From: Candidatus Babeliales bacterium
GTDB taxonomy: Bacteria; Babelota; Babeliae; Babelales; JANWKD01
DNA: 64,000 nucleotides
NCBI GenBank assembly: GCA_963722255.1
Contig: CAVRJO010000001.1
Coordinates: 768,001-832,000, forward strand
Reading direction: 5' to 3'
Part shown: positions 20,626 to 31,081 of the stretch, piece by piece
How positions within the stretch are numbered: position 1 is the first letter of the stretch
Layout: the number at the start of each line of letters is the position of its first letter
Notes under the pieces: model-generated
The model's database searches: none
What the model was told of the DNA's origin: nothing
What the model saw: only the letters and a program-made list of their open reading frames with translations
Program-made: the position numbers and the translations under genes

Positions 20626-21237
20626 TTAGCTTCCTTTTGCAGCAAAAGGTATCTTTGAAGCAGCTAACGTTACGAGTGGCATTAAGCGTGCATTAAAAAG
20701 AGATGCTACTTCATTGCGGAAGAAGTATGATGCTATACTGGCAGCACTAAGTCCTAATCCGATAGCACCGAAAATTCTTTTGTAATCGTAGATAGTATAA
20801 TGATATCCTCTAATATCTTTATAAGAAAGATCACTATCATTAAGATAAATGTTTTTCCATACAGTATTACCTTCTGTTCTCCAAATAAGCTTAGTGAAAA
20901 AGCCGTTTCTTCTCACGGACAAATCATCATAATAGTATGTACCTTGTCTCTTCGCCTTGTTCAATAGCATTATTTTTTCTGAAATTCTATCACAACAATC
21001 CTTTCTTGTTGAATTAGATGGATTTTCAGCCAAAACTTTATTTACTTGCTCTTGAGAAGATATCCATGGTTTAACAGACATAGCTATACAATCTTGTGTA
21101 TATTGTTTGAATAATTCTTTAGAATCATGATAGCTATATCCTTCTTTAGTTAGCTTTTTCATTGCAAATGATTGCTGCACTGTAGTTCCCACGAGAATTA
21201 TAGTTGCAGCAATATATAATTTTAATACTATTTTCAT
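20626..21237 (-). CDS. Secreted protein with C-terminal TM segment; paralog of 22404..22949; separated from its RBS by an IS
   Basis: Signal peptide and C-terminal ~45 aa nearly identical to 22404..22949. Confidence 0.75.
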   Translation of the reverse strand: MKIVLKLYIAATIILVGTTVQQSFAMKKLTKEGYSYHDSKELFKQYTQDCIAMSVKPWISSQEQVNKVLAENPSNSTRKDCCDRISEKIMLLNKAKRQGTYYYDDLSVRRNGFFTKLIWRTEGNTVWKNIYLNDSDLSYKDIRGYHYTIYDYKRIFGAIGLGLSAASIASYFFRNEVASLFNARLMPLVTLAASKIPFAAKGS

Positions 21238-21242
21238 AAATA

Positions 21243-22381
21243 CAGGACTTCCGCAGAGTATTTAAAGATTTGATCTAGACGTATTTTTAAAAAATAATAG
21301 ACTCTCCCAAAAAGCCTAATTCAAGGGAGAGCCTAAAATGATCATCGTTAATACTATAGCAACTTATCCATTTCTTACAATTCTTACAAATATTGGCAAA
21401 CGAAGTTTTGAGAATATGGGTAGGGTAATCAAAAAAAGCGGAGATACCATTAGCCGAATGTTACGGCCAGGTCATGAAAGCCTTGAACAATCAAAAAAAA
21501 TTGCACAACAAATTTTCGCTGATAAAAAAGAATTATTAGCAGTTATAGATGAAACGGCTATCAAAAAAATTCATTCTCAAATGATGGAAGGTACGGGATG
21601 GCTTTTTGATACTAAGATAGGCAGGTCGATTAATGCATACAAATTGATTATTGGTGCTATTTCTGATCGTAAGTTTGTTGTGCCTATAAATGCTGCTTTT
21701 ACTTTTGGTAAGGAATTTTATACAAATCCAAGCGAAGCTTTAAGAATTACTGTACAACATTTCATTAATACCGCTCAAAAACTTTTCCCTAATACACGAA
21801 TTATTGCTGTTTTAGATGGTGCATATGCTACTGTAAAGTATCTACAATGGGCTATTGAAAATAACATTGAAACTGAAGTGCGCATGCATAGTAATCGTGT
21901 TGTTGAGTACAAAGGAAAAAAGAAAAAGCTGCGTGAAATTAAAGAAATACGTCCAAAAGGCCGCCAAATGGCTCGAACTGTACAAGTTATTTGGCGCGGC
22001 CTTTCTTTATATATTACCGCTGTAAGGCGCATTGATAAGCATGGCAATGAAACAATTGTTTACCAAGCAGCAACCTATAAAGCTACTCCAAAACAACATG
22101 CTATGAATTATAAAAAGCGATGGGGCATAGAGAAATTAAATAGAACTACTAAGCAAAGTTTAGGTTTACAGGAATGTTTTTCTCGAAAAATAGTTACACA
22201 ATATGACCATATTTGTGCCGTGCTTTTAGCATATTCTCTCGTTCAATTGGAAATGAAAAAAAATGGTTATAAAAACGCAGAAACCGCTATCAGAGCTCTT
22301 AAGAAAAAAAATCCTGCTTTTTTAAATCGATGCATTACGGCTCTAGATCAAAACAATGCTAGTGTTTATGCGTAATTCCTG
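21243..22381 (+). mobile_element. Insertion sequence (IS701-like / IS4-superfamily DDE), 1139 bp
   Basis: Terminal IRs CAGGACTTCCGCA / TGCGTAATTCCTG (11/13); 6-bp direct repeat TAAATA at 21237-21242 and 22382-22387. Confidence 0.9.
21338..22375 (+). CDS. DDE transposase
   Basis: AVIDET, VLDGAY, YKKRWGIEKLNRTTKQSLGL. Confidence 0.92.
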   Translation: MIIVNTIATYPFLTILTNIGKRSFENMGRVIKKSGDTISRMLRPGHESLEQSKKIAQQIFADKKELLAVIDETAIKKIHSQMMEGTGWLFDTKIGRSINAYKLIIGAISDRKFVVPINAAFTFGKEFYTNPSEALRITVQHFINTAQKLFPNTRIIAVLDGAYATVKYLQWAIENNIETEVRMHSNRVVEYKGKKKKLREIKEIRPKGRQMARTVQVIWRGLSLYITAVRRIDKHGNETIVYQAATYKATPKQHAMNYKKRWGIEKLNRTTKQSLGLQECFSRKIVTQYDHICAVLLAYSLVQLEMKKNGYKNAETAIRALKKKNPAFLNRCITALDQNNASVYA

Positions 22382-22403
22382 TAAATACCTCATATTTTTA
22401 GTG

Positions 22404-22949
22404 TTAGCTTCTTTGAGCTAAAAATGGAACTTTCGAAATAGCTGAAGTTAGCAACGGCATTAAGCGTGCATTAAAAAGCGATGCTACTTCATTGCGGAAG
22501 AAATATGACGCTATACCGGCGGCACTAAGTCCTAATCCGATGGCACCATAGATTCGTTTGTAATCATAGGTATCAATATACATTGTATTAAAACAATGCG
22601 AAACGTTGTGCTCTTCTATACCTACTTGCTGCGTAAACCAACCAGTTCGAACACATGAAATACGCTTTGTTTTGTATACTTTAAATTCTTGTGCCCTTGT
22701 TCTCTTTCCTGAAACATAATCTAAATACTTTTTAGCTCCAGTTAAAAGCTCAAGCGCTGTAGCATCATTTTCGAACTTAGCTTTTTTTGCTTCAAATGCT
22801 TTCAAGATCTCTTGATCTGTTGCTCCTTGTCTTGCACCAAGTTGTTTACATGCAAGTGGATATGTCCACATATTCATTGCAAATGATTGTTGTACCATTC
22901 CAACAAGAATGATAGTTGCAGCAATATATAATTTTGTACTTATTTTCAT
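22404..22949 (-). CDS. Secreted protein with a degenerate J-like segment and C-terminal TM
   Basis: ACKQLGARQGATDQEILKAF, no HPD; GAIGLGLSAAGIASYFF. Confidence 0.75.
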   Translation of the reverse strand: MKISTKLYIAATIILVGMVQQSFAMNMWTYPLACKQLGARQGATDQEILKAFEAKKAKFENDATALELLTGAKKYLDYVSGKRTRAQEFKVYKTKRISCVRTGWFTQQVGIEEHNVSHCFNTMYIDTYDYKRIYGAIGLGLSAAGIASYFFRNEVASLFNARLMPLLTSAISKVPFLAQRS

Positions 22950-22987
22950 AAATTTTCCTTTTGTTTAAAAAATTAATTTTTTCGTTT

Positions 22988-23680
22988 CTAAGCTGCAACA
23001 GCAGCTTTTCTATAGTTATACCATACTACCGCTAATCCTAGCCCAATCGTGGCAACAATACCGATTCCTAAAGCCCATTTAAAACGTTGATTTCGAGGTG
23101 CCTCATGCGTCTCTCCATCTTCACGTTCTTGAATCTGTGAGAGTGCTTCCACAAGGTCTAGATCTTCCATTGAAGTAACAACTTTCTTGGCTGTCTCAAA
23201 TTCTTTCTCTCTATTATCTTGCTTTTTAATATGATTGGCAGCTTTAATACGATTTTTACGGCGCGCATTTCTTCGCTCAAGTCGCCTCGCACATCTTTCT
23301 TCAAAAAGCTTTTTTGCTGTGTATAAACTTTCACACTCTTCAGACATCAACAAAAGCTTTGAAAATTCCATTTTATTATCGTATGTTTTCAATGTATAAC
23401 ACAAATTCAATTGATCTTTATCGCCATTAGGCAAATATATCCAATATTTACCATCGATCCTAAAACCATTTTCTTTGATAAATTCATCATCAAAACTGAA
23501 TTCATTTTCATTGTCAAAGCACTGACCTTTTGAACTAGGGACTAAACCATTGGCAATACCATCTTCATCAATTTCTACTTCAGGAGTAGGTTGTTCCATG
23601 CTTATTACTTGGCCCATGCCAAACAAAAACATAAGGCCTAAAAAGATAATTGTTTTATTCATTTTCATATATAACCCCAT
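22988..23680 (-). CDS. Secreted protein with a basic patch and C-terminal tail anchor
   Basis: Signal peptide VIS-MEQ; RRLERRNARRKNR; WALGIGIVATIGLGLAVVWYNYRK. Confidence 0.75.
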   Translation of the reverse strand: MGLYMKMNKTIIFLGLMFLFGMGQVISMEQPTPEVEIDEDGIANGLVPSSKGQCFDNENEFSFDDEFIKENGFRIDGKYWIYLPNGDKDQLNLCYTLKTYDNKMEFSKLLLMSEECESLYTAKKLFEERCARRLERRNARRKNRIKAANHIKKQDNREKEFETAKKVVTSMEDLDLVEALSQIQEREDGETHEAPRNQRFKWALGIGIVATIGLGLAVVWYNYRKAAVAA

Positions 23681-23707
23681 TTTTTTCTTTTAATTATTTT
23701 AGGGAGC

Positions 23708-24361
23708 TTAAACTGTAATAAAAAGTTTAAATTTCTTGCCAGTCAACAAATAATAAGCATTATTTATTTCAATTAATTGCCCAGGAGTTCTTGCTAAATC
23801 ATAATCCCATATACGCTGTGCCGTCTCTTCAATCTCTTGCACTGTTGCATCTGGACCAACGCCCAATATTCTACGTGCTTCTTTATCAGTCATTATCGTT
23901 TTGAGCTTTGGAACTTCGAATCTAAATTTTTTACCAGTCAATAGCTCAAATGCATTATTAATTTTTTTTATCTGCTTTTTAACAGCAATTTCAATCTCTT
24001 GCTCAGTTGCTCCATATCGAACTCCTAGTACTTTAAAAGCTTGTTCAGTTCCAGTAGTCTCGAGCTCTAAATCAAACGTTATACCTGCTGCATCATTAAT
24101 TCCAAAAAGCTTAAATTTCTCGCCCGTTAAGGCCTCATATGCCTTGACCACTCTGTTCCAAAAGCCAGGCAGCCTGATTACTTTTTGTGAGCGCAAAAGG
24201 TTAATTCTTGCTTCAATCTCTTCTTGTGTTGCATTTTCATTAACCTCTAAAAATTCACACGCATATGCTTTAGACATAATAACTTTTGCTGAAACAGTAG
24301 TGCCCATAACCATAAAAGTTAAAACCATAAGAACAACTATTTTATTTATTTTCATTTTCAT
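23708..24361 (-). CDS. Secreted protein with three tandem J-like repeats lacking HPD
   Basis: Three units of A..L(G/E)V...AT..EIE...(K/N)A(Y/F)..LTG.KF. Confidence 0.8.
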   Translation of the reverse strand: MKMKINKIVVLMVLTFMVMGTTVSAKVIMSKAYACEFLEVNENATQEEIEARINLLRSQKVIRLPGFWNRVVKAYEALTGEKFKLFGINDAAGITFDLELETTGTEQAFKVLGVRYGATEQEIEIAVKKQIKKINNAFELLTGKKFRFEVPKLKTIMTDKEARRILGVGPDATVQEIEETAQRIWDYDLARTPGQLIEINNAYYLLTGKKFKLFITV

Positions 24362-24391
24362 AAAAACTCCATTAAGTTTGAAGCATAAAAA

Positions 24392-25132
24392 TTATGCTTT
24401 TTTTGTATACAAATTTTTTACAAAGTTAGATATTTTAACCAATCCGGGAACCACAAAAGAATCTTTCAATGCAATAACTTTAGCCGGGTGGTAAATCCAC
24501 ATACATGTTCCAAAACCTATACCTACAAAACCAAGACCAACTGACCATTTAAAAATAGTATTTTTTAACTGAACTCTCTTCTTTTCATTATAAATTTTTC
24601 TTACATTTTCCTCATCAGCTTTTGGAACTTTAACAAAACCATCTGTAGTTTTTATCGTAACTAATTCTTCTTCACCGTTTTGGTCAGTTCCAAAAAAATT
24701 GTCAAATAATTTCTGGGTAGATGCGCCAGCAAAAAATTGATGCATAGGGCTATCTTGAGGAAACATTTCTTGAATTTGTTTATTTAAGTTTTGATCATTC
24801 TTAAAGATTTCACAAAAAAATTGATTTGCAGCTTCTAGGCTTGGCTGATATGCCTTTTCTTTGCCAGTTATAATCGCATAGGCGCGTACGACTCTTTTAA
24901 AATTTTCCTCAGCATCGTTATCAGGATTTTTATCTGGGTGATATAGTAAAGCTAATTTTTTGAATGCAGCCTTAATTTCATCAGCATTAGCACCTTCATC
25001 AACACCAAGCAACGCATATGCTTCACTTCTGGCCATTTCTTCTAAAGGCTTTGTAAATTCCATACCTCTTGAATGACCAATACCACCTAAAAGCATAAGG
25101 CCTACAAGGGCAACTATTCTATTAATTTTCAT
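24392..25132 (-). CDS. Secreted J-domain (DnaJ-type) protein with C-terminal TM
   Basis: AYALLGV..EIKAAFKKLALLYHPDKNP..FKRVVRAYAII. Confidence 0.9.
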   Translation of the reverse strand: MKINRIVALVGLMLLGGIGHSRGMEFTKPLEEMARSEAYALLGVDEGANADEIKAAFKKLALLYHPDKNPDNDAEENFKRVVRAYAIITGKEKAYQPSLEAANQFFCEIFKNDQNLNKQIQEMFPQDSPMHQFFAGASTQKLFDNFFGTDQNGEEELVTIKTTDGFVKVPKADEENVRKIYNEKKRVQLKNTIFKWSVGLGFVGIGFGTCMWIYHPAKVIALKDSFVVPGLVKISNFVKNLYTKKA

Positions 25133-27087: not shown

Positions 27088-27231
27088 CGCGAAGCCTGGC
27101 GAAGCCAGACGTAGTTTGCCGAGCCGGAAGGCCCCTCCGTCGCTCAAGGAGCTATGGCGGGCTTTCGCCGGATAATGTAGGGCGAAGCCAGTCGAAGCTT
27201 GCCAAGCAGGAAGGCGTGGATAAGCGTAGAC
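27088..27231. repeat. GC-rich modular palindromic repeat tract at the 3' end of tmRNA-1
   Basis: Recurrent GCGAAGCC units; 27097-27134 is identical to 29331-29368. Confidence 0.7.
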
Positions 27232-27599
27232 TGGTGGAGGCGATGGGAATCGAACCCATGTCCGCATTATGTTAAGCCCAAAGCAGCTACATGTTTAGTT
27301 TTTGAATATACCTTCGTTCAACCTCAAAAACACAGATTCCGAACAAAGGTTAGTTTGGTGCTTTTTTCAGGCTACTCAACTAAAAAACCTTGCCTAAAAG
27401 TCTTATCTTGTATTATACGAGTCAGTAAAGCTGATAAGCACGCTGCACTGACAAGAACTTCTGCAATTAACTTAAAGCTAATGCAGGAGCTGCTAAACCG
27501 AAGTTTGCATTTATGTTTTGACTGCTTTTTCCAAGTTCTCAGCCGAAACTCGACATGCTCTTTGCGCTCTCTATAACGCGTCGAAGCCTGTACGCCCCC
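27232..27599 (-). ncRNA. ssrA: tmRNA copy 1 (368 nt), tag ANFGLAAPALALS*
   Basis: 5' GGGGGCGUACAGGCUUCGAC; 3' GGGUUCGAUUCCCAUCGCCUCCACCA; G3.U70 pair; AUAAAU-GCA resume context at 27508; stop 27469-27467; pseudoknot stems. Confidence 0.95.
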
Positions 27600-27629
27600 A
27601 GAAATTTCAAAGAATATATAACTATTCTA

Positions 27630-27659
27630 ATTGTATTTTTTATTGTATAAATAAGTCAA
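27630..27659 (-). promoter_or_regulatory. Sigma70-like promoter of tmRNA-1
   Basis: TTGACT-N18-TACAAT. Confidence 0.55.
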
Positions 27660-27707
27660 TAATTGAATATTTTTTTAAAGAGATTTATTGTTTGATAATA
27701 AAAAAAG

Positions 27708-28313
27708 TTATTTGGAACTAGCACGTAAATTAAGTTTGTAAAAGCCCCACAAGCTCGCTACGCATATTCCTATCAAGAGACCGGCTATGGCTTTTTGAGC
27801 ATGATAATAGATGGGCAAATATTCTGTTCTATAACTTTCCCGTGCCATTTGGTATGAATCTACATTTTCATAGATACTAACTTTATATGCTTTTGCGTAA
27901 GGAATTCCAATAAATAAGAACGTATCGAGCTCCTCTTTTATCGAACCCGATTGCCCATTAAATTTTATCTCAAATTGTTTTAAAAAATTTGATACATACG
28001 ATTGAGGATGCTTATTCAATAAAATTTCAACAGCAGATTTTAATGATTCAAATTTTTGCCTAGCCTCATGAGGCGTTAATTTATTATATTGCGCACGATC
28101 TGGATGAAATCTTAAAGCTAACAGCTTAAATTGATTCTTTATATTTTCGTCAGTCAAGCTATCTTGACTAAGCTCTAATATTTCACAAGCCTCTTTCCAG
28201 GTTAATTTTGAATTCATTGCCTGCATAGAACTAATGCTGAAAACAAGTATTAATATGGCAAATAGATTTGTTTTTTTCATATATTTTTCCCTTTTTATAT
28301 ATTTCTTTTTCAT
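27708..28313 (-). CDS. Secreted J-domain protein with C-terminal tail anchor (likely start 28280, MKKTN)
   Basis: EACEILEL..IKNQFKLLALRFHPDR; AIAGLLIGICVASLWGFYK. Confidence 0.85.
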   Translation of the reverse strand: MKKKYIKREKYMKKTNLFAILILVFSISSMQAMNSKLTWKEACEILELSQDSLTDENIKNQFKLLALRFHPDRAQYNKLTPHEARQKFESLKSAVEILLNKHPQSYVSNFLKQFEIKFNGQSGSIKEELDTFLFIGIPYAKAYKVSIYENVDSYQMARESYRTEYLPIYYHAQKAIAGLLIGICVASLWGFYKLNLRASSK

Positions 28314-28432
28314 AACTATAGATTATCAAATTAACCAAAAAAGTCAATATTCAATTTGTAATTAACTATAATCAATTGAGAAAATCAGAACTATTGCAGA
28401 AAAATAATTTGACTGTTCTTTTTTTTTGAAAA

Positions 28433-29029
28433 TTATCTGCTCCAGAGTGAACTGAAACAGGTAGGGCAATGATAATGCCATAAGGCACCAAAGCCTATAA
28501 TGAAAGGAATTGAAAAGAGAAACTTTGCTTTAAGGCAATATACAGATTTTGTTTTAATATAAACATTCCAGCCTTCTTCTGTTTTGGCGAGCGCTTCAAG
28601 AAGCGATTGGTCTTCGTCCTCAGGACTGTCTTCAACTACACCAATTACTTTTTTACAGGCAAAAAGATTTGCTTTTAAATTGTGTATCCCATAAACAAAT
28701 TCAAACGTATTAACATTCTTTGATAACCAATAACCCAAAAAACTATATCGTTTAGTCTCTTGTAAAAAAACTCTTTTCTCAGAATTATATTCAATTATAG
28801 AAATATTATTTCTTTTTCGCTCTGCTGCAAGAGATCGTAAAGCCTCCTTGTTTTCAGAAGATTGCGGAAAATAACCACTCAGCTGATGTGTTTTTTGAGC
28901 GTTCTCAAATAATTCACTCAAAAACATCCATTGTCGCTCTTGACGCTTTTTCTCTTCCATAGCCTCTAACAATGAATAAGACAAAATAAAAAATAAGGCA
29001 CAAATAAAGGATAGAATGTATTTTTTCAT
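28433..29029 (-). CDS. Secreted protein with C-terminal TM
   Basis: Signal peptide LEA-MEE; FLFSIPFIIGFGALW. Confidence 0.75.
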   Translation of the reverse strand: MKKYILSFICALFFILSYSLLEAMEEKKRQERQWMFLSELFENAQKTHQLSGYFPQSSENKEALRSLAAERKRNNISIIEYNSEKRVFLQETKRYSFLGYWLSKNVNTFEFVYGIHNLKANLFACKKVIGVVEDSPEDEDQSLLEALAKTEEGWNVYIKTKSVYCLKAKFLFSIPFIIGFGALWHYHCPTCFSSLWSR

Positions 29030-29059
29030 GGTATTTAAAATTTTTGAATTTTTGTTAAT

Positions 29060-29382
29060 GCGCGAATAGTCGATCCTTCGCTTTTAGGGTAAAACCTCGA
29101 AGTATTATAAAGCTTCCGCCTACGCTTATCCATGCTTTCCAGCTTGGCAAGCTACGTCGGACAAGTCTTTGGACAATCTTCGCCTCATCTTGCTGGCGGC
29201 AGCCAATCGTAGCCGTAGGTCAACTTCGTAGTAGTCCAGTCTTCGCTTGCAGTGGAATAACTTCGAAGTAAAATTGAGCTTCGACGGACAGACTTCGTTT
29301 ATATAACCAAATTACAGCTCATTAAAAGATTGGCGAAGCCAGACGTAGTTTGCCGAGCCGGAAGGCCCGGATAAACGAAGTC
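29060..29382. repeat. GC-rich modular palindromic repeat tract at the 3' end of tmRNA-2
   Basis: CTTCG/CGAAG units; shares a 38-bp block with the tract at 27088 and an inverted ~34-bp block (29120-29153 vs 27196-27229). Confidence 0.7.
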
Positions 29383-29822
29383 TGGTGGAGGCGATGGGAA
29401 TCGAACCCATGTCCGCAACATATCAAGCTCAAAGCACGCTACATGTTTAGTTTTCGAATATACTGTGCCAAACCTCGAAAACAGAATATTTAAGCACAGC
29501 CCAGTTCAGTATTTTTTCTAGTTACACTCCTGGAAGAATTCTTACTAGAAAGTCTTATCTTGTATTATACGTGTCAGCGCAACTGATAAGCACGCCTTGC
29601 TGACAAGTTTTCAAATAGCTTTAAGCTTATTACGCTGCAGCTGCGGCACTCCAAGTGCCGAATGCATTTGCGCTAACATAGCCTAAATGTGCTAATGAAG
29701 AATCGCCTTTTACAGCGTTTGCATTTTTTGCATTTATAGTTTGACCGCTTTTTCCAAGTTCTCAGCCGAAACTCGACATGCTCTTTGACCCATCAATACC
29801 ACGTCGAAGCCTGTACGCCCCC
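29383..29822 (-). ncRNA. ssrA: tmRNA copy 2 (440 nt), tag AKNANAVKGDSSLAHLGYVSANAFGTWSAAAAA**
   Basis: Same termini as copy 1; resume codon GCA at 29731; 33 codons, then TAA TAA (29632-29627); pseudoknot stems intact. Confidence 0.95.
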
Positions 29823-29851: not shown

Positions 29852-29880
29852 AGAATAACAATGCATTGACAAAATGTCAA
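29852..29880 (-). promoter_or_regulatory. Sigma70-like promoter of tmRNA-2
   Basis: TTGACA-N17-TATTCT with TGn extension. Confidence 0.6.
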
Positions 29881-29897
29881 AAATACCTGTTATTTTC

Positions 29898-31081
29898 CTT
29901 AACACCTGACAAAATTTAACACTCATCAAAGACTCTGTTTTGCAAAAAGTGTATACTTTGTGAAAAACAAAGGAGTAAATAAGGTGAGAATGATGGGTGG
30001 ATCAATAATACACTTGGCAAAAGTTATCGAAGAAGATTTAGCAGAGAGAGATATACGTTTAAGCAAGCCACAAAGGATAGGTTTGGCAGATTTGCATCAG
30101 CAGCATCAGTAATAACATGTCGCAATGTTAACACATCAGAATTAGCAACAGTGCTGCCAAGAAAAGTCAAAAGTGATGAGGAGCGTTATCGCTATATTAA
30201 TCGTTGGCTTGCCAATGATAAAATTGATTGTGATACGTTACTAGAAGGCTTTATCCCTGAATTAATAGAACTTATACATGCAAATGGCCAGATCATTGTT
30301 TTATCAATGGATCAAAGTCAAATCAATAAAGAATTTGAATGTCTTATGGTTTCATTGCGAATTGGAGAACGTGCTATTCCTGTTGCATGGCGAGTAATTA
30401 AAACGCAAGGAGAAATTGGCTTTACCATTCAAAAACAACTGCTTGAGGCGGTGTTTGCTAACATACCAAGCTATGCAAAAATTATTTTAATGGCGGATAG
30501 ATTCTATGGGAATCCTGCGCTTATCCAATTATGTCAAAGTTTCAAATGGCGATACCGCATTCGCTTGAAAGGTAATCTTATTCTTTTTCATCATGGTGGG
30601 GAATTGAGTTCTGGCGAGCTTATCAGATTAAAACAAACATCGTTGTGCAATGTTCAGTTGACATTATAATTCTGGCGTTACAACTAACATTGGTGCACTA
30701 CAAGATGAAGGCAAAGATGAACCTTGGATCATTGCTATGGATTGTGTTCCTACCGAATATAAAGTTCTTGATTATGGCATGCGATGGTCTATTGAGCCTA
30801 TGTTCTCAGACTTTAAATCAAGAGGCTTTGATATCACTACTACTCAGTTACGCCATGCAGAACGAATAGAACGTCTTATTCTTGTTTTAAGTGTTGCTTA
30901 TTATTGGGCTGTTTCCACCGGCATGCAGCCAGATCTTGAGCGTGCAAAACGTTCTAAAAAAAAACTGCGCGCAGTTTAACTTCCTTTTTCAAAAAAGGTA
31001 TTCGCTTTCTTCTGAAAGCCGCACTGTCATTGCTGGAAATTCCCCCTTTATGGCTTACTTTTAAAATTGTCAGGTGTTAAG
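29898..31081 (+). mobile_element. IS4-family insertion sequence, 1184 bp
   Basis: Perfect 15-bp IRs CTTAACACCTGACAA / TTGTCAGGTGTTAAG; 9-bp direct repeat GTTATTTTC at 29889-29897 and 31082-31090. Confidence 0.92.
29989..31080 (+). pseudogene. IS4-family transposase, frameshifted near 30095, near 30663 and at the A9 run 30956-30964
   Basis: Fragments LSMDQS, LMADRFYG, YGMRWSIEPMFSDFKSRGF, RSLTSFFKKG in different frames; final stop lies inside the right IR. Confidence 0.85.

Follow-up and report, generated by a model that had tools for sequence, protein, structure and literature searches.

Trans-translation is normally described with one transfer-messenger RNA (tmRNA), one SmpB and one tag. 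What, then, is to be made of a Babeliales (Dependentiae) chromosome on which two tmRNA (ssrA) genes with different tags follow one another on the minus strand? The stretch concerned, hereafter the window, comprises 64,000 nucleotides (nt) of Candidatus Babeliales bacterium (GenBank assembly GCA_963722255.1, contig CAVRJO010000001.1, positions 768,001 to 832,000), and an original prediction, made from its letters, had proposed that it encodes a dual-tag ribosome-rescue system. The answer reached here is that the two genes are probably native paralogs, born of an old tandem duplication in one genus of the Babeliales and both kept as working structured RNAs. Both are complete and descend from one ancestral gene, their duplication is older than the split between two species, and both copies are under purifying selection.

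Three genomes or contigs are referred to throughout. G000 is the genome from which the window is taken (1,618,240 bases in 2 contigs, 93% complete, 2.55% estimated contamination), and coordinates without a prefix are window positions. G001 is a genome of the same genus, with its tmRNA locus on stretch L039, and L067 is an independent 5.5-kb metagenome contig from an organism that differs in species from G000. tmRNA genes were searched for with ARAGORN and with Infernal, using the Rfam model RF00023 (374 positions, gathering score 47 bits).

Two complete tmRNA genes in tandem

Both programs call the following two genes, whose tag frames, given in amino acids (aa), were translated from the shared GCA.

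27232..27599, minus strand: copy 1, short-tag tmRNA paralog, 368 nt, found by ARAGORN and RF00023 (155.4 bits, E 2.7e-61)
29383..29822, minus strand: copy 2, long-tag tmRNA paralog, 440 nt, found by ARAGORN and RF00023 (147.8 bits, E 4.5e-58)
27467..27508, minus strand: copy 1 tag frame, ANFGLAAPALALS, 13 aa, one stop
29627..29731, minus strand: copy 2 tag frame, AKNANAVKGDSSLAHLGYVSANAFGTWSAAAAA, 33 aa, two stops

Copy 1 and copy 2 alike cover model positions 1-374 of 374, and 1783 nt separate them. The proposal of two full-length minus-strand ssrA genes about 1.8 kb apart is therefore confirmed by the very searches of this genome and its relatives that the original prediction had recommended. 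No third tmRNA above the cut-off was found in a search of the whole G000 genome, and smpB, which was also to be counted, is a single gene (171 bits, 158-aa open frame, G000:C2:357004-357438).

The mean column identity of the two copies is 82% in a pairwise alignment, and their identity over shared positions is 76.0% in a nine-sequence alignment. As had been predicted, they have in common an acceptor stem with G3.U70 (7 pairs) and 5 T-arm pairs, all canonical and the same in both, as well as the 3' CCA end and the ATAAAT-GCA (AUAAAU-GCA in the RNA) resume context. The D-loop region and pseudoknot 1 (PK1) are the same or nearly so, and the differences cluster in helix 2, the tag frame and PK2-PK4. 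Differences that preserve pairing in PK2, PK3 and PK4, another part of the prediction, are present both in the model fit and in the folds, where PK2, PK3, PK4 and the tag hairpins are similar in the two copies. Among the 94 pairs of the model, counted on the model-based Rfam alignment with the second stems of the pseudoknots judged by eye only, 81 are canonical in copy 1 and 76 in copy 2, as against 72 in the single tmRNA of G001. A plain MAFFT alignment of both paralogs is unfit for such counts, in that indels displace the variable helices; 18 pairs of copy 2 that it made appear broken are paired in the copy's own fold and in the model-based alignment. Each copy thus has the full-length match, the tRNA-like domain, the resume codon with its tag frame and the paired pseudoknot ring of an RF00023 tmRNA, and the partner protein SmpB is encoded in the same genome.

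Two other identities were considered and dropped. A two-piece (permuted) tmRNA of the RF04321 type finds no support, since its matches in the window, at 24.7 and 20.1 bits, stay below the threshold of 47. An ssrA 3'-end duplicate left by island integration does not fit two copies that are both complete, with homology running from the 5' leader to the trailer.

The same pair in a second organism

L067 carries, on one strand and in this order, a photolyase gene, a second photolyase-like open reading frame (ORF), a long-tag tmRNA and a short-tag tmRNA.

L067:1331-1758: long-tag tmRNA, full length, 153.1 bits
L067:565-929: short-tag tmRNA, full length, 160.4 bits

The two are set tightly head to tail, with a spacer of 401 nt. 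This organism is a different species; its photolyase has 74% protein identity to that of G000. A further metagenome record, L068, carries the short copy of L067; since it starts where L067 does and may be a sister sample, it was not counted separately. A match of 73.5 bits to the permuted (two-piece) tmRNA model at L067:812-1394, across the junction of the genes, is a side effect of the tandem, and annotation pipelines could mis-call such tandems on account of matches of this kind.

The copies pair by type and not by genome. Copy 1 is 87.7% identical to the short copy of L067 and copy 2 is 82.4% identical to the long one, whereas identities between types lie at 74.5-76.5%. A 17-row maximum-likelihood tree joins the two short copies with support 98/97 and the two long ones with 99/97, in each case across organisms. 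Both types fall inside the family clade (87/83 in another analysis). Constraining copy 1 and copy 2 to group together cost 80 log-likelihood (lnL) units and was rejected (p-AU 9.2e-5); holding copy 2, the long copy of L067 and the G001 tmRNA together was not (p 0.38). Since pairing follows type across organisms, the duplication predates the split between G000 and the L067 organism.

G001 takes this one step further. It has one full tmRNA of 425 nt, whose 29-aa tag resembles that of copy 2, and on one strand its locus reads photolyase, full tmRNA and then, about 1.3 kb downstream, a decayed 5' piece of a tmRNA. The piece starts at L039:11744 behind a TTGAC...TTACAATTAGAAT block that resembles the one before copy 1; it lies below Infernal scoring, and no 3' remnant was found at the locus. 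Of its first 60 nt, 48-49 agree with the short type and 43-45 with the long one. The margin is small, and the assignment of the piece to the short type rests mainly on position and orientation. It is taken as what is left of a second gene because island integration yields no 5' fragments. Given this relic, the duplication is probably also older than the split from G001.

Compensated helices in both copies

Does conservation of this order require selection? Between G000 and L067, the four-fold degenerate sites of the adjacent photolyase gene are identical at 42 of 115 (36.5%), which amounts to saturation, and the spacers between the copies share only the trailer and the promoter. With neutral sites saturated, a tmRNA copy free of constraint would be unrecognisable.

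The pattern of substitution points the same way. Among the 79 usable canonical pairs in the comparison of copy 1 with the short copy of L067, 7 had changed on both sides and 6 on one side without loss of pairing, and 3 were broken. Placing 25 substitutions at random gave means of 0.79 double, 7.8 single and 14.4 broken, and none of 10,000 permutations yielded at least 7 doubly compensated pairs, or 3 broken pairs or fewer. Four of the seven double changes lie in PK2-PK4; the other three lie in a rebuilt tag hairpin, where positional homology is doubtful. For copy 2 and the long copy of L067, 3 double changes and 1 single change kept pairing, 3 pairs were broken, and 7 were lost to gaps in the tag hairpin. 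Each paralog is represented by 2-3 sequences. Ortholog identity far beyond that of saturated neutral sites, together with compensated helices, indicates that both paralogs are under purifying selection for structure in the two lineages, a conclusion drawn from comparison of the sequences. The prediction that both copies are under selection thereby gains the same pair in a second organism, the identity of the orthologs and the compensated helix changes; the covariation that it had required for the second copy is seen between orthologs, with the 25-substitution permutations bearing on copy 1.

A short tag that looks like a long tag without its middle

The prediction had stated that the two tags share little similarity. 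The alignments contradict this. The short tag retains the first codons of the long tag (GCA AA.) and its C-terminal FG...Ala-rich part, and thus looks like the long tag minus its middle, an internal deletion with the ends alike. In L067 the short copy encodes ANFGLAAA followed by two stops (8 aa) and the long copy a tag of 30 aa. In G000 the long tag ends in AAAAA and two stops. ARAGORN begins it at a second GCA, which would give 30 aa; the resume codon was placed here by homology with copy 1, L067 and G001. The short tag of G000 has lost both original stops and gained one codon, so that it ends in LALS where its ortholog has AAA, and the hairpin around it has been rebuilt about the new stop, which sits in the hairpin loop (-12.6 kcal/mol, z -3.5).

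Which of the two is the unusual gene can be read from the relatives. Single tmRNAs of the family (L033, L032, L065, L037 and L031) are of unusual length, 415-456 nt, and their tag frames have about 28-36 codons, while the tags of the other Babeliales searched have 7-26 aa. Copy 2 therefore corresponds to the gene usual in the family, and copy 1 is the odd one. ARAGORN missed the tmRNAs that Infernal finds in L032, L035 and L065, and several tags of the family were mis-started.

Promoter-like sites

Each copy is preceded by a promoter-like site.

27630..27659, minus strand: promoter-like site of copy 1, TTGACT-18-TACAAT, from scan and conservation
29852..29880, minus strand: promoter-like site of copy 2, TTGACA-17-TATTCT with TG, from scan and conservation

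Support for them comes from conservation in the orthologs and not from the scan. The -35 of copy 1 and a TTACAATTAG[A/G]AT block are kept before the short copy of L067 and before the G001 relic; TTTTTGACA and a TGTTA... -10 block of copy 2 are kept before the long copy of L067. Of the predicted sigma70-like promoter for each copy, then, a site conserved in orthologs stands in both cases, but the scan in itself does not rise above chance. The block TTACAATTAGAA, which precedes the single tmRNAs of G003, G004 and L065, is near-identical to that of the short type. Because single-copy genes of the sister genus carry so similar a block, the short-type upstream region looks ancestral, and on the same comparison the long-type region is the derived one.

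Origin of the second copy

Could the pair be an artefact, two strains or organisms collapsed into one contig? The assembly consists of 2 contigs with some estimated contamination, as given above, but the copies are only 76% identical and lie 1.8 kb apart around unique ORFs, and the same tandem is present in an independent metagenome assembly, which rules out a two-strain collapse. A public soil DNA run (9% of sampled words) gave five short contigs on pieces of the window, none bridging both copies; one of them, of 246 nt, is identical to 27410-27655 without differences. A chimeric assembly, which the original prediction had named as fatal to it, has hardly any probability left. Transfer deserves more thought. 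On this account the second copy arrived from a related Babeliales lineage or on a mobile element, and no tandem duplication took place. The extra tmRNAs of mycobacteria are attributed to transfer in the relevant passages of Behra et al. 2022 (PMC9569102), the present locus is plastic, with an insertion sequence (IS), transposases and lineage-specific ORFs, and G002 weakly joins the short type (73/86). Moreover, the tree places the two types, G001 and G002 in no firm deeper order, which leaves room for transfer from a sister genus instead of duplication. Against this, both types lie within the family clade, the two copies share their proximal leader and trailer, and in L067 they form a tight head-to-tail pair with a short spacer. 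Copy 1 had no match in 50,697 phage records, and the family motif none in IMG/VR; no integrase was found among 13 ORFs scanned with Pfam, and only one of seven neighbouring ORFs gave a PHROG match, a weak one of unknown function (E 4.5e-4). A foreign or phage-borne extra gene within a mobile element was rejected on these grounds, and the clustering with phage tmRNAs that would have told against the original prediction was found neither in the tree nor in the phage records, IMG/VR or PHROG. I consider transfer very improbable, and tandem duplication within the genus is retained as the probable origin of the pair.

Points against keeping both copies

Several observations weigh against the view that both genes are kept as working RNAs. 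Only two lineages carry both copies, and among 150 other genomes of the order (139 with a match) none has two diverged full ones. The congener G001 keeps its second copy only as a decayed 5' relic, so that the gene can evidently be lost. The short tag of G000 ends in Ser, whereas the 25 relatives' tags called among 27 loci end in Ala in 24 cases and in Cys in one, and it has lost the double stop and the Ala-Ala-Ala end that its ortholog kept; both losses could be early decay of the message part of copy 1. The promoter scan as a whole is at chance level, with 11 sites against 9.9 expected, and the want of a firm deeper order in the tree, discussed above, belongs here too.

The counts among relatives need some comment. 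Of the first 40 relatives searched, 38 had a tmRNA match, and 37 of these had exactly one. Across the order, 149 of the 150 other genomes lack a second tmRNA match. The remaining genome, G040, has a second tmRNA with nearly the same tag, but both of its copies are at contig ends in a genome of 90 contigs with 5% contamination, and this case was set aside as redundancy. A second match in G103 is 76 nt long and below the cut-off, and at a weak match of 267 nt in G003 (31.5 bits) ARAGORN found nothing.

These facts invite the suggestion that the short-tag copy is a redundant spare in the course of being lost, intact by inertia, with nothing distinct to do and perhaps silent. The relic of G001, the rarity of second copies in the order and the short tag of G000, stripped of its Ala-rich end and both original stops, are what such a spare would leave. 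Yet the short copies are 87.7% identical when four-fold sites are saturated; 7 double compensations stand against 0.79 expected and 3 broken pairs against 14.4; the short copy outscores the long one in Rfam in both organisms; and the promoter block of the short copy is conserved. A spare is accordingly unlikely. Slightly less likely still is that the short-tag RNA is retained to serve some function other than tagging, for instance titration of SmpB or EF-Tu to tune rescue, or a fast rescue with minimal translation, its tag being free to drift. The near identity of the tRNA-like domain and of PK1 in the two copies, the strong alteration of the tag frame, more than of any other part, and the different tag ends of G000 and L067 would suit such a role, as would a phage tmRNA of little beyond the tRNA-like domain and the inhibition exerted by such molecules, both mentioned in passages of PMC4131195. 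But both short copies retain the resume context and an open frame, as well as a stop codon with its hairpin, and PK2-PK4, needless for a mere SmpB sponge, are kept by compensation.

Proteases and a possible use of two tags

If both copies are indeed working tmRNAs, which proteases could read their tags? ClpP, the ClpX zinc finger and SspB were not found in G000, a genome that is 93% complete, and among 30 relatives ClpP gave only weak partial matches (18-35 bits, ORFs of about 270-330 aa, in 6 genomes). G000 encodes one intact Lon (830 aa, around C1:251333-251944), two FtsH and one Tsp-type S41 protease. A second Lon gene, at G000:C2:421143-422754, has an in-frame TAA and is split among three frames of 104, 235 and 205 aa; the idea of two Lon genes matching the two tags was dropped for this reason.

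On the reading given at the outset, both copies would be transcribed, each from its own promoter. The shared tRNA-like domain, PK1 and resume context lead me to infer alanine charging and use of the single SmpB for both RNAs, which would then compete for stalled ribosomes, with the mix of tags set by the two promoters. The upstream copy keeps the long tag of the family, 30-33 aa, and the downstream copy carries a mini-tag that arose by a deletion in mid-frame, 8 aa long in the relative and 13 aa in G000 after loss of the stops. By analogy with the long ssrA tag of Mesoplasma and its Lon, the long tag is a possible Lon-type degron; the leading guess for the short tag is a quick-release tail or one of the FtsH or Tsp type. 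A more speculative scheme goes further: one SmpB would serve two tmRNAs that selection keeps apart for the different ends they write onto stalled proteins, a tag of about 30 aa read by Lon and a mini-tag of 8-13 aa that releases the ribosome fast and passes the protein elsewhere (to FtsH, to Tsp or to no degradation at all), and separate promoters could let the parasite shift the balance between growth stages. I regard this last scheme, with the different fates and life stages that the original prediction also suggested, as doubtful.

Flanking sequences and neighbouring genes

The surroundings of the two genes comprise the following features.

29326..29382, minus strand: structured trailer element directly 3' of copy 2, repeat family D3
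27092..27231, minus strand: trailer region after copy 1, with a diverged trailer at 27175-27217 and a second one, 95% alike, at 27092-27134
27708..29029, minus strand: between the copies, a DnaJ-domain protein (201 aa, Pfam DnaJ E 5e-10) and a 198-aa protein without known family
29898..31081, no strand assigned: IS-like repeat of 1184 bp, six genome copies at 98-99% identity
33467..34837, minus strand: photolyase gene, located upstream of the long-tag copy and serving as synteny anchor for G000, L067 and G001

The trailer of copy 2 folds at -20.5 kcal/mol (z -3.6). In G000 the element measures about 50 nt; in L067 about 80 nt of it is common to the two tmRNAs. It also occurs 3-6 nt past the ends of tRNA-Ser (two genes), tRNA-Leu, tRNA-Asn and tRNA-Lys (G000:C1:244675-244724, C1:576002-576050, C1:185738-185768, C2:137102-137146 and C2:568020-568069). 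Trailer copies are 84-98% alike, as against 76% for the two tmRNA bodies. The element may be a shared terminator or processing signal, or else a small element whose target is the 3' side of tRNA-like genes. Beyond the trailer of copy 2, at 29060-29320, there are further short dispersed repeats and inverted partial trailer copies, and a 63-nt piece of this region recurs at 95% at two places around C2:577538-577763.

The two ORFs between the copies are missing from the 401-nt spacer of L067 and were gained in G000 relative to it. So was the IS-like repeat, which ends 18 nt short of the copy 2 -35 and 75 nt upstream of the gene itself; homology to the upstream region of L067 starts at its edge. 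This repeat seems to be split into frames of 172, 74 and 80 aa, and the longest of them, the sole one scanned, has no Pfam or PHROG match. Further upstream, the photolyase of G000 is 74% identical in protein sequence to that at L067:3273-4649 and 62.6% identical to that on L039.

At 20626-25132 and 27708-28313 there is a run of small paralogs that start with a signal-like segment and end in a hydrophobic tail, and three of them are over the Pfam DnaJ (J) cut-off (E 6e-18, 9e-07 and 5e-10). They have the look of host-directed J proteins, secreted or anchored in the membrane, and one of them lies between the tmRNA genes. A DDE transposase of 345 aa (21338-22375 in the window, L039:12362-13387 in G001) has 79% protein identity between G000 and G001. 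Its position beyond the short-type tmRNA or relic in both genomes makes it part of the locus since before the species split.

Relation to known systems

Genomic-island and prophage integration duplicates only the 3' end of ssrA. The locus described here is of the same type and has mobile DNA nearby too, an IS and transposases in the window, but both of its genes run whole from G1 to CCA, and the ORFs scanned include no integrase. Complete additional genes have also been recorded. Passages of the tmRNA Website survey (Hudson, Lau and Williams 2014, PMC4131195) note second and third ssrA alleles in one genome, so that these too are cases of more than one complete gene, and list tmRNA pseudogenes without one end. 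Some of these alleles are on plasmids, and the passages on them contain no analysis of origin, conservation or tags; the present pair is chromosomal, in tandem, vertically inherited and conserved in a second organism. Four mycobacteria have extra tmRNA genes with different tags, which the corresponding passages of Behra et al. 2022 (PMC9569102) derive from a phage (Nappy) or from Tsukamurella. There too the tag differs, and the same question of differential degradation is raised, but those extras are attributed to transfer, while here both copies lie in their own family clade and pair by type. A possible double tmRNA in Hydrogenivirga was left as possible contamination in the passage of PMC4227106 that mentions it. 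Of the premise that bacteria normally have one ssrA and that islands duplicate only its 3' end, the first half must be softened, as second and third alleles were already in print in the passages just cited from PMC4131195 and PMC9569102, while for the second half a 3'-end duplication is excluded here.

For the long tag the nearest parallel is Mesoplasma and Mycoplasma, with which G000 shares a small genome, the failure to find ClpP and ClpX and an unusually long tag. The original work on Lon-directed ssrA tags in these bacteria is reportedly that of Gur and Sauer in 2008. They have one tmRNA where G000 has two, and a Lon reading of either tag of G000 is hypothetical. That mf-Lon works with its own ssrA tag is stated in 10.1101/2022.12.20.521030 and PMC9097571.

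A second tmRNA with another tag is thus an already known kind of thing. Searches for direct phrases on duplicate tmRNAs gave no match in the searchable literature, although supplements of the papers cited may list such genomes, and among papers naming both tmRNA and Dependentiae none is on duplicate tmRNAs by its title and the start of its abstract. What is new relative to the searchable texts is a native tandem pair, its type-wise conservation across species with compensatory change, and the combination of a mini-tag and a long tag where ClpXP was not found.

Meaning for trans-translation in the Babeliales

The extra tmRNA genes reported so far were explained by transfer, contamination or decay. 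Here there is comparative evidence for the keeping of both. A second full tmRNA call in a genome should therefore not be dismissed as an artefact without comparison. The tags of the pair differ four-fold in length in an organism in which no ClpXP or SspB was found, and the Babeliales group may degrade tmRNA-tagged proteins without ClpXP. The pair offers a clean system in which to ask whether two tmRNAs can share one SmpB, and whether the length or sequence of a tag sets the fate of a rescued protein under the candidate proteases Lon, FtsH and Tsp.

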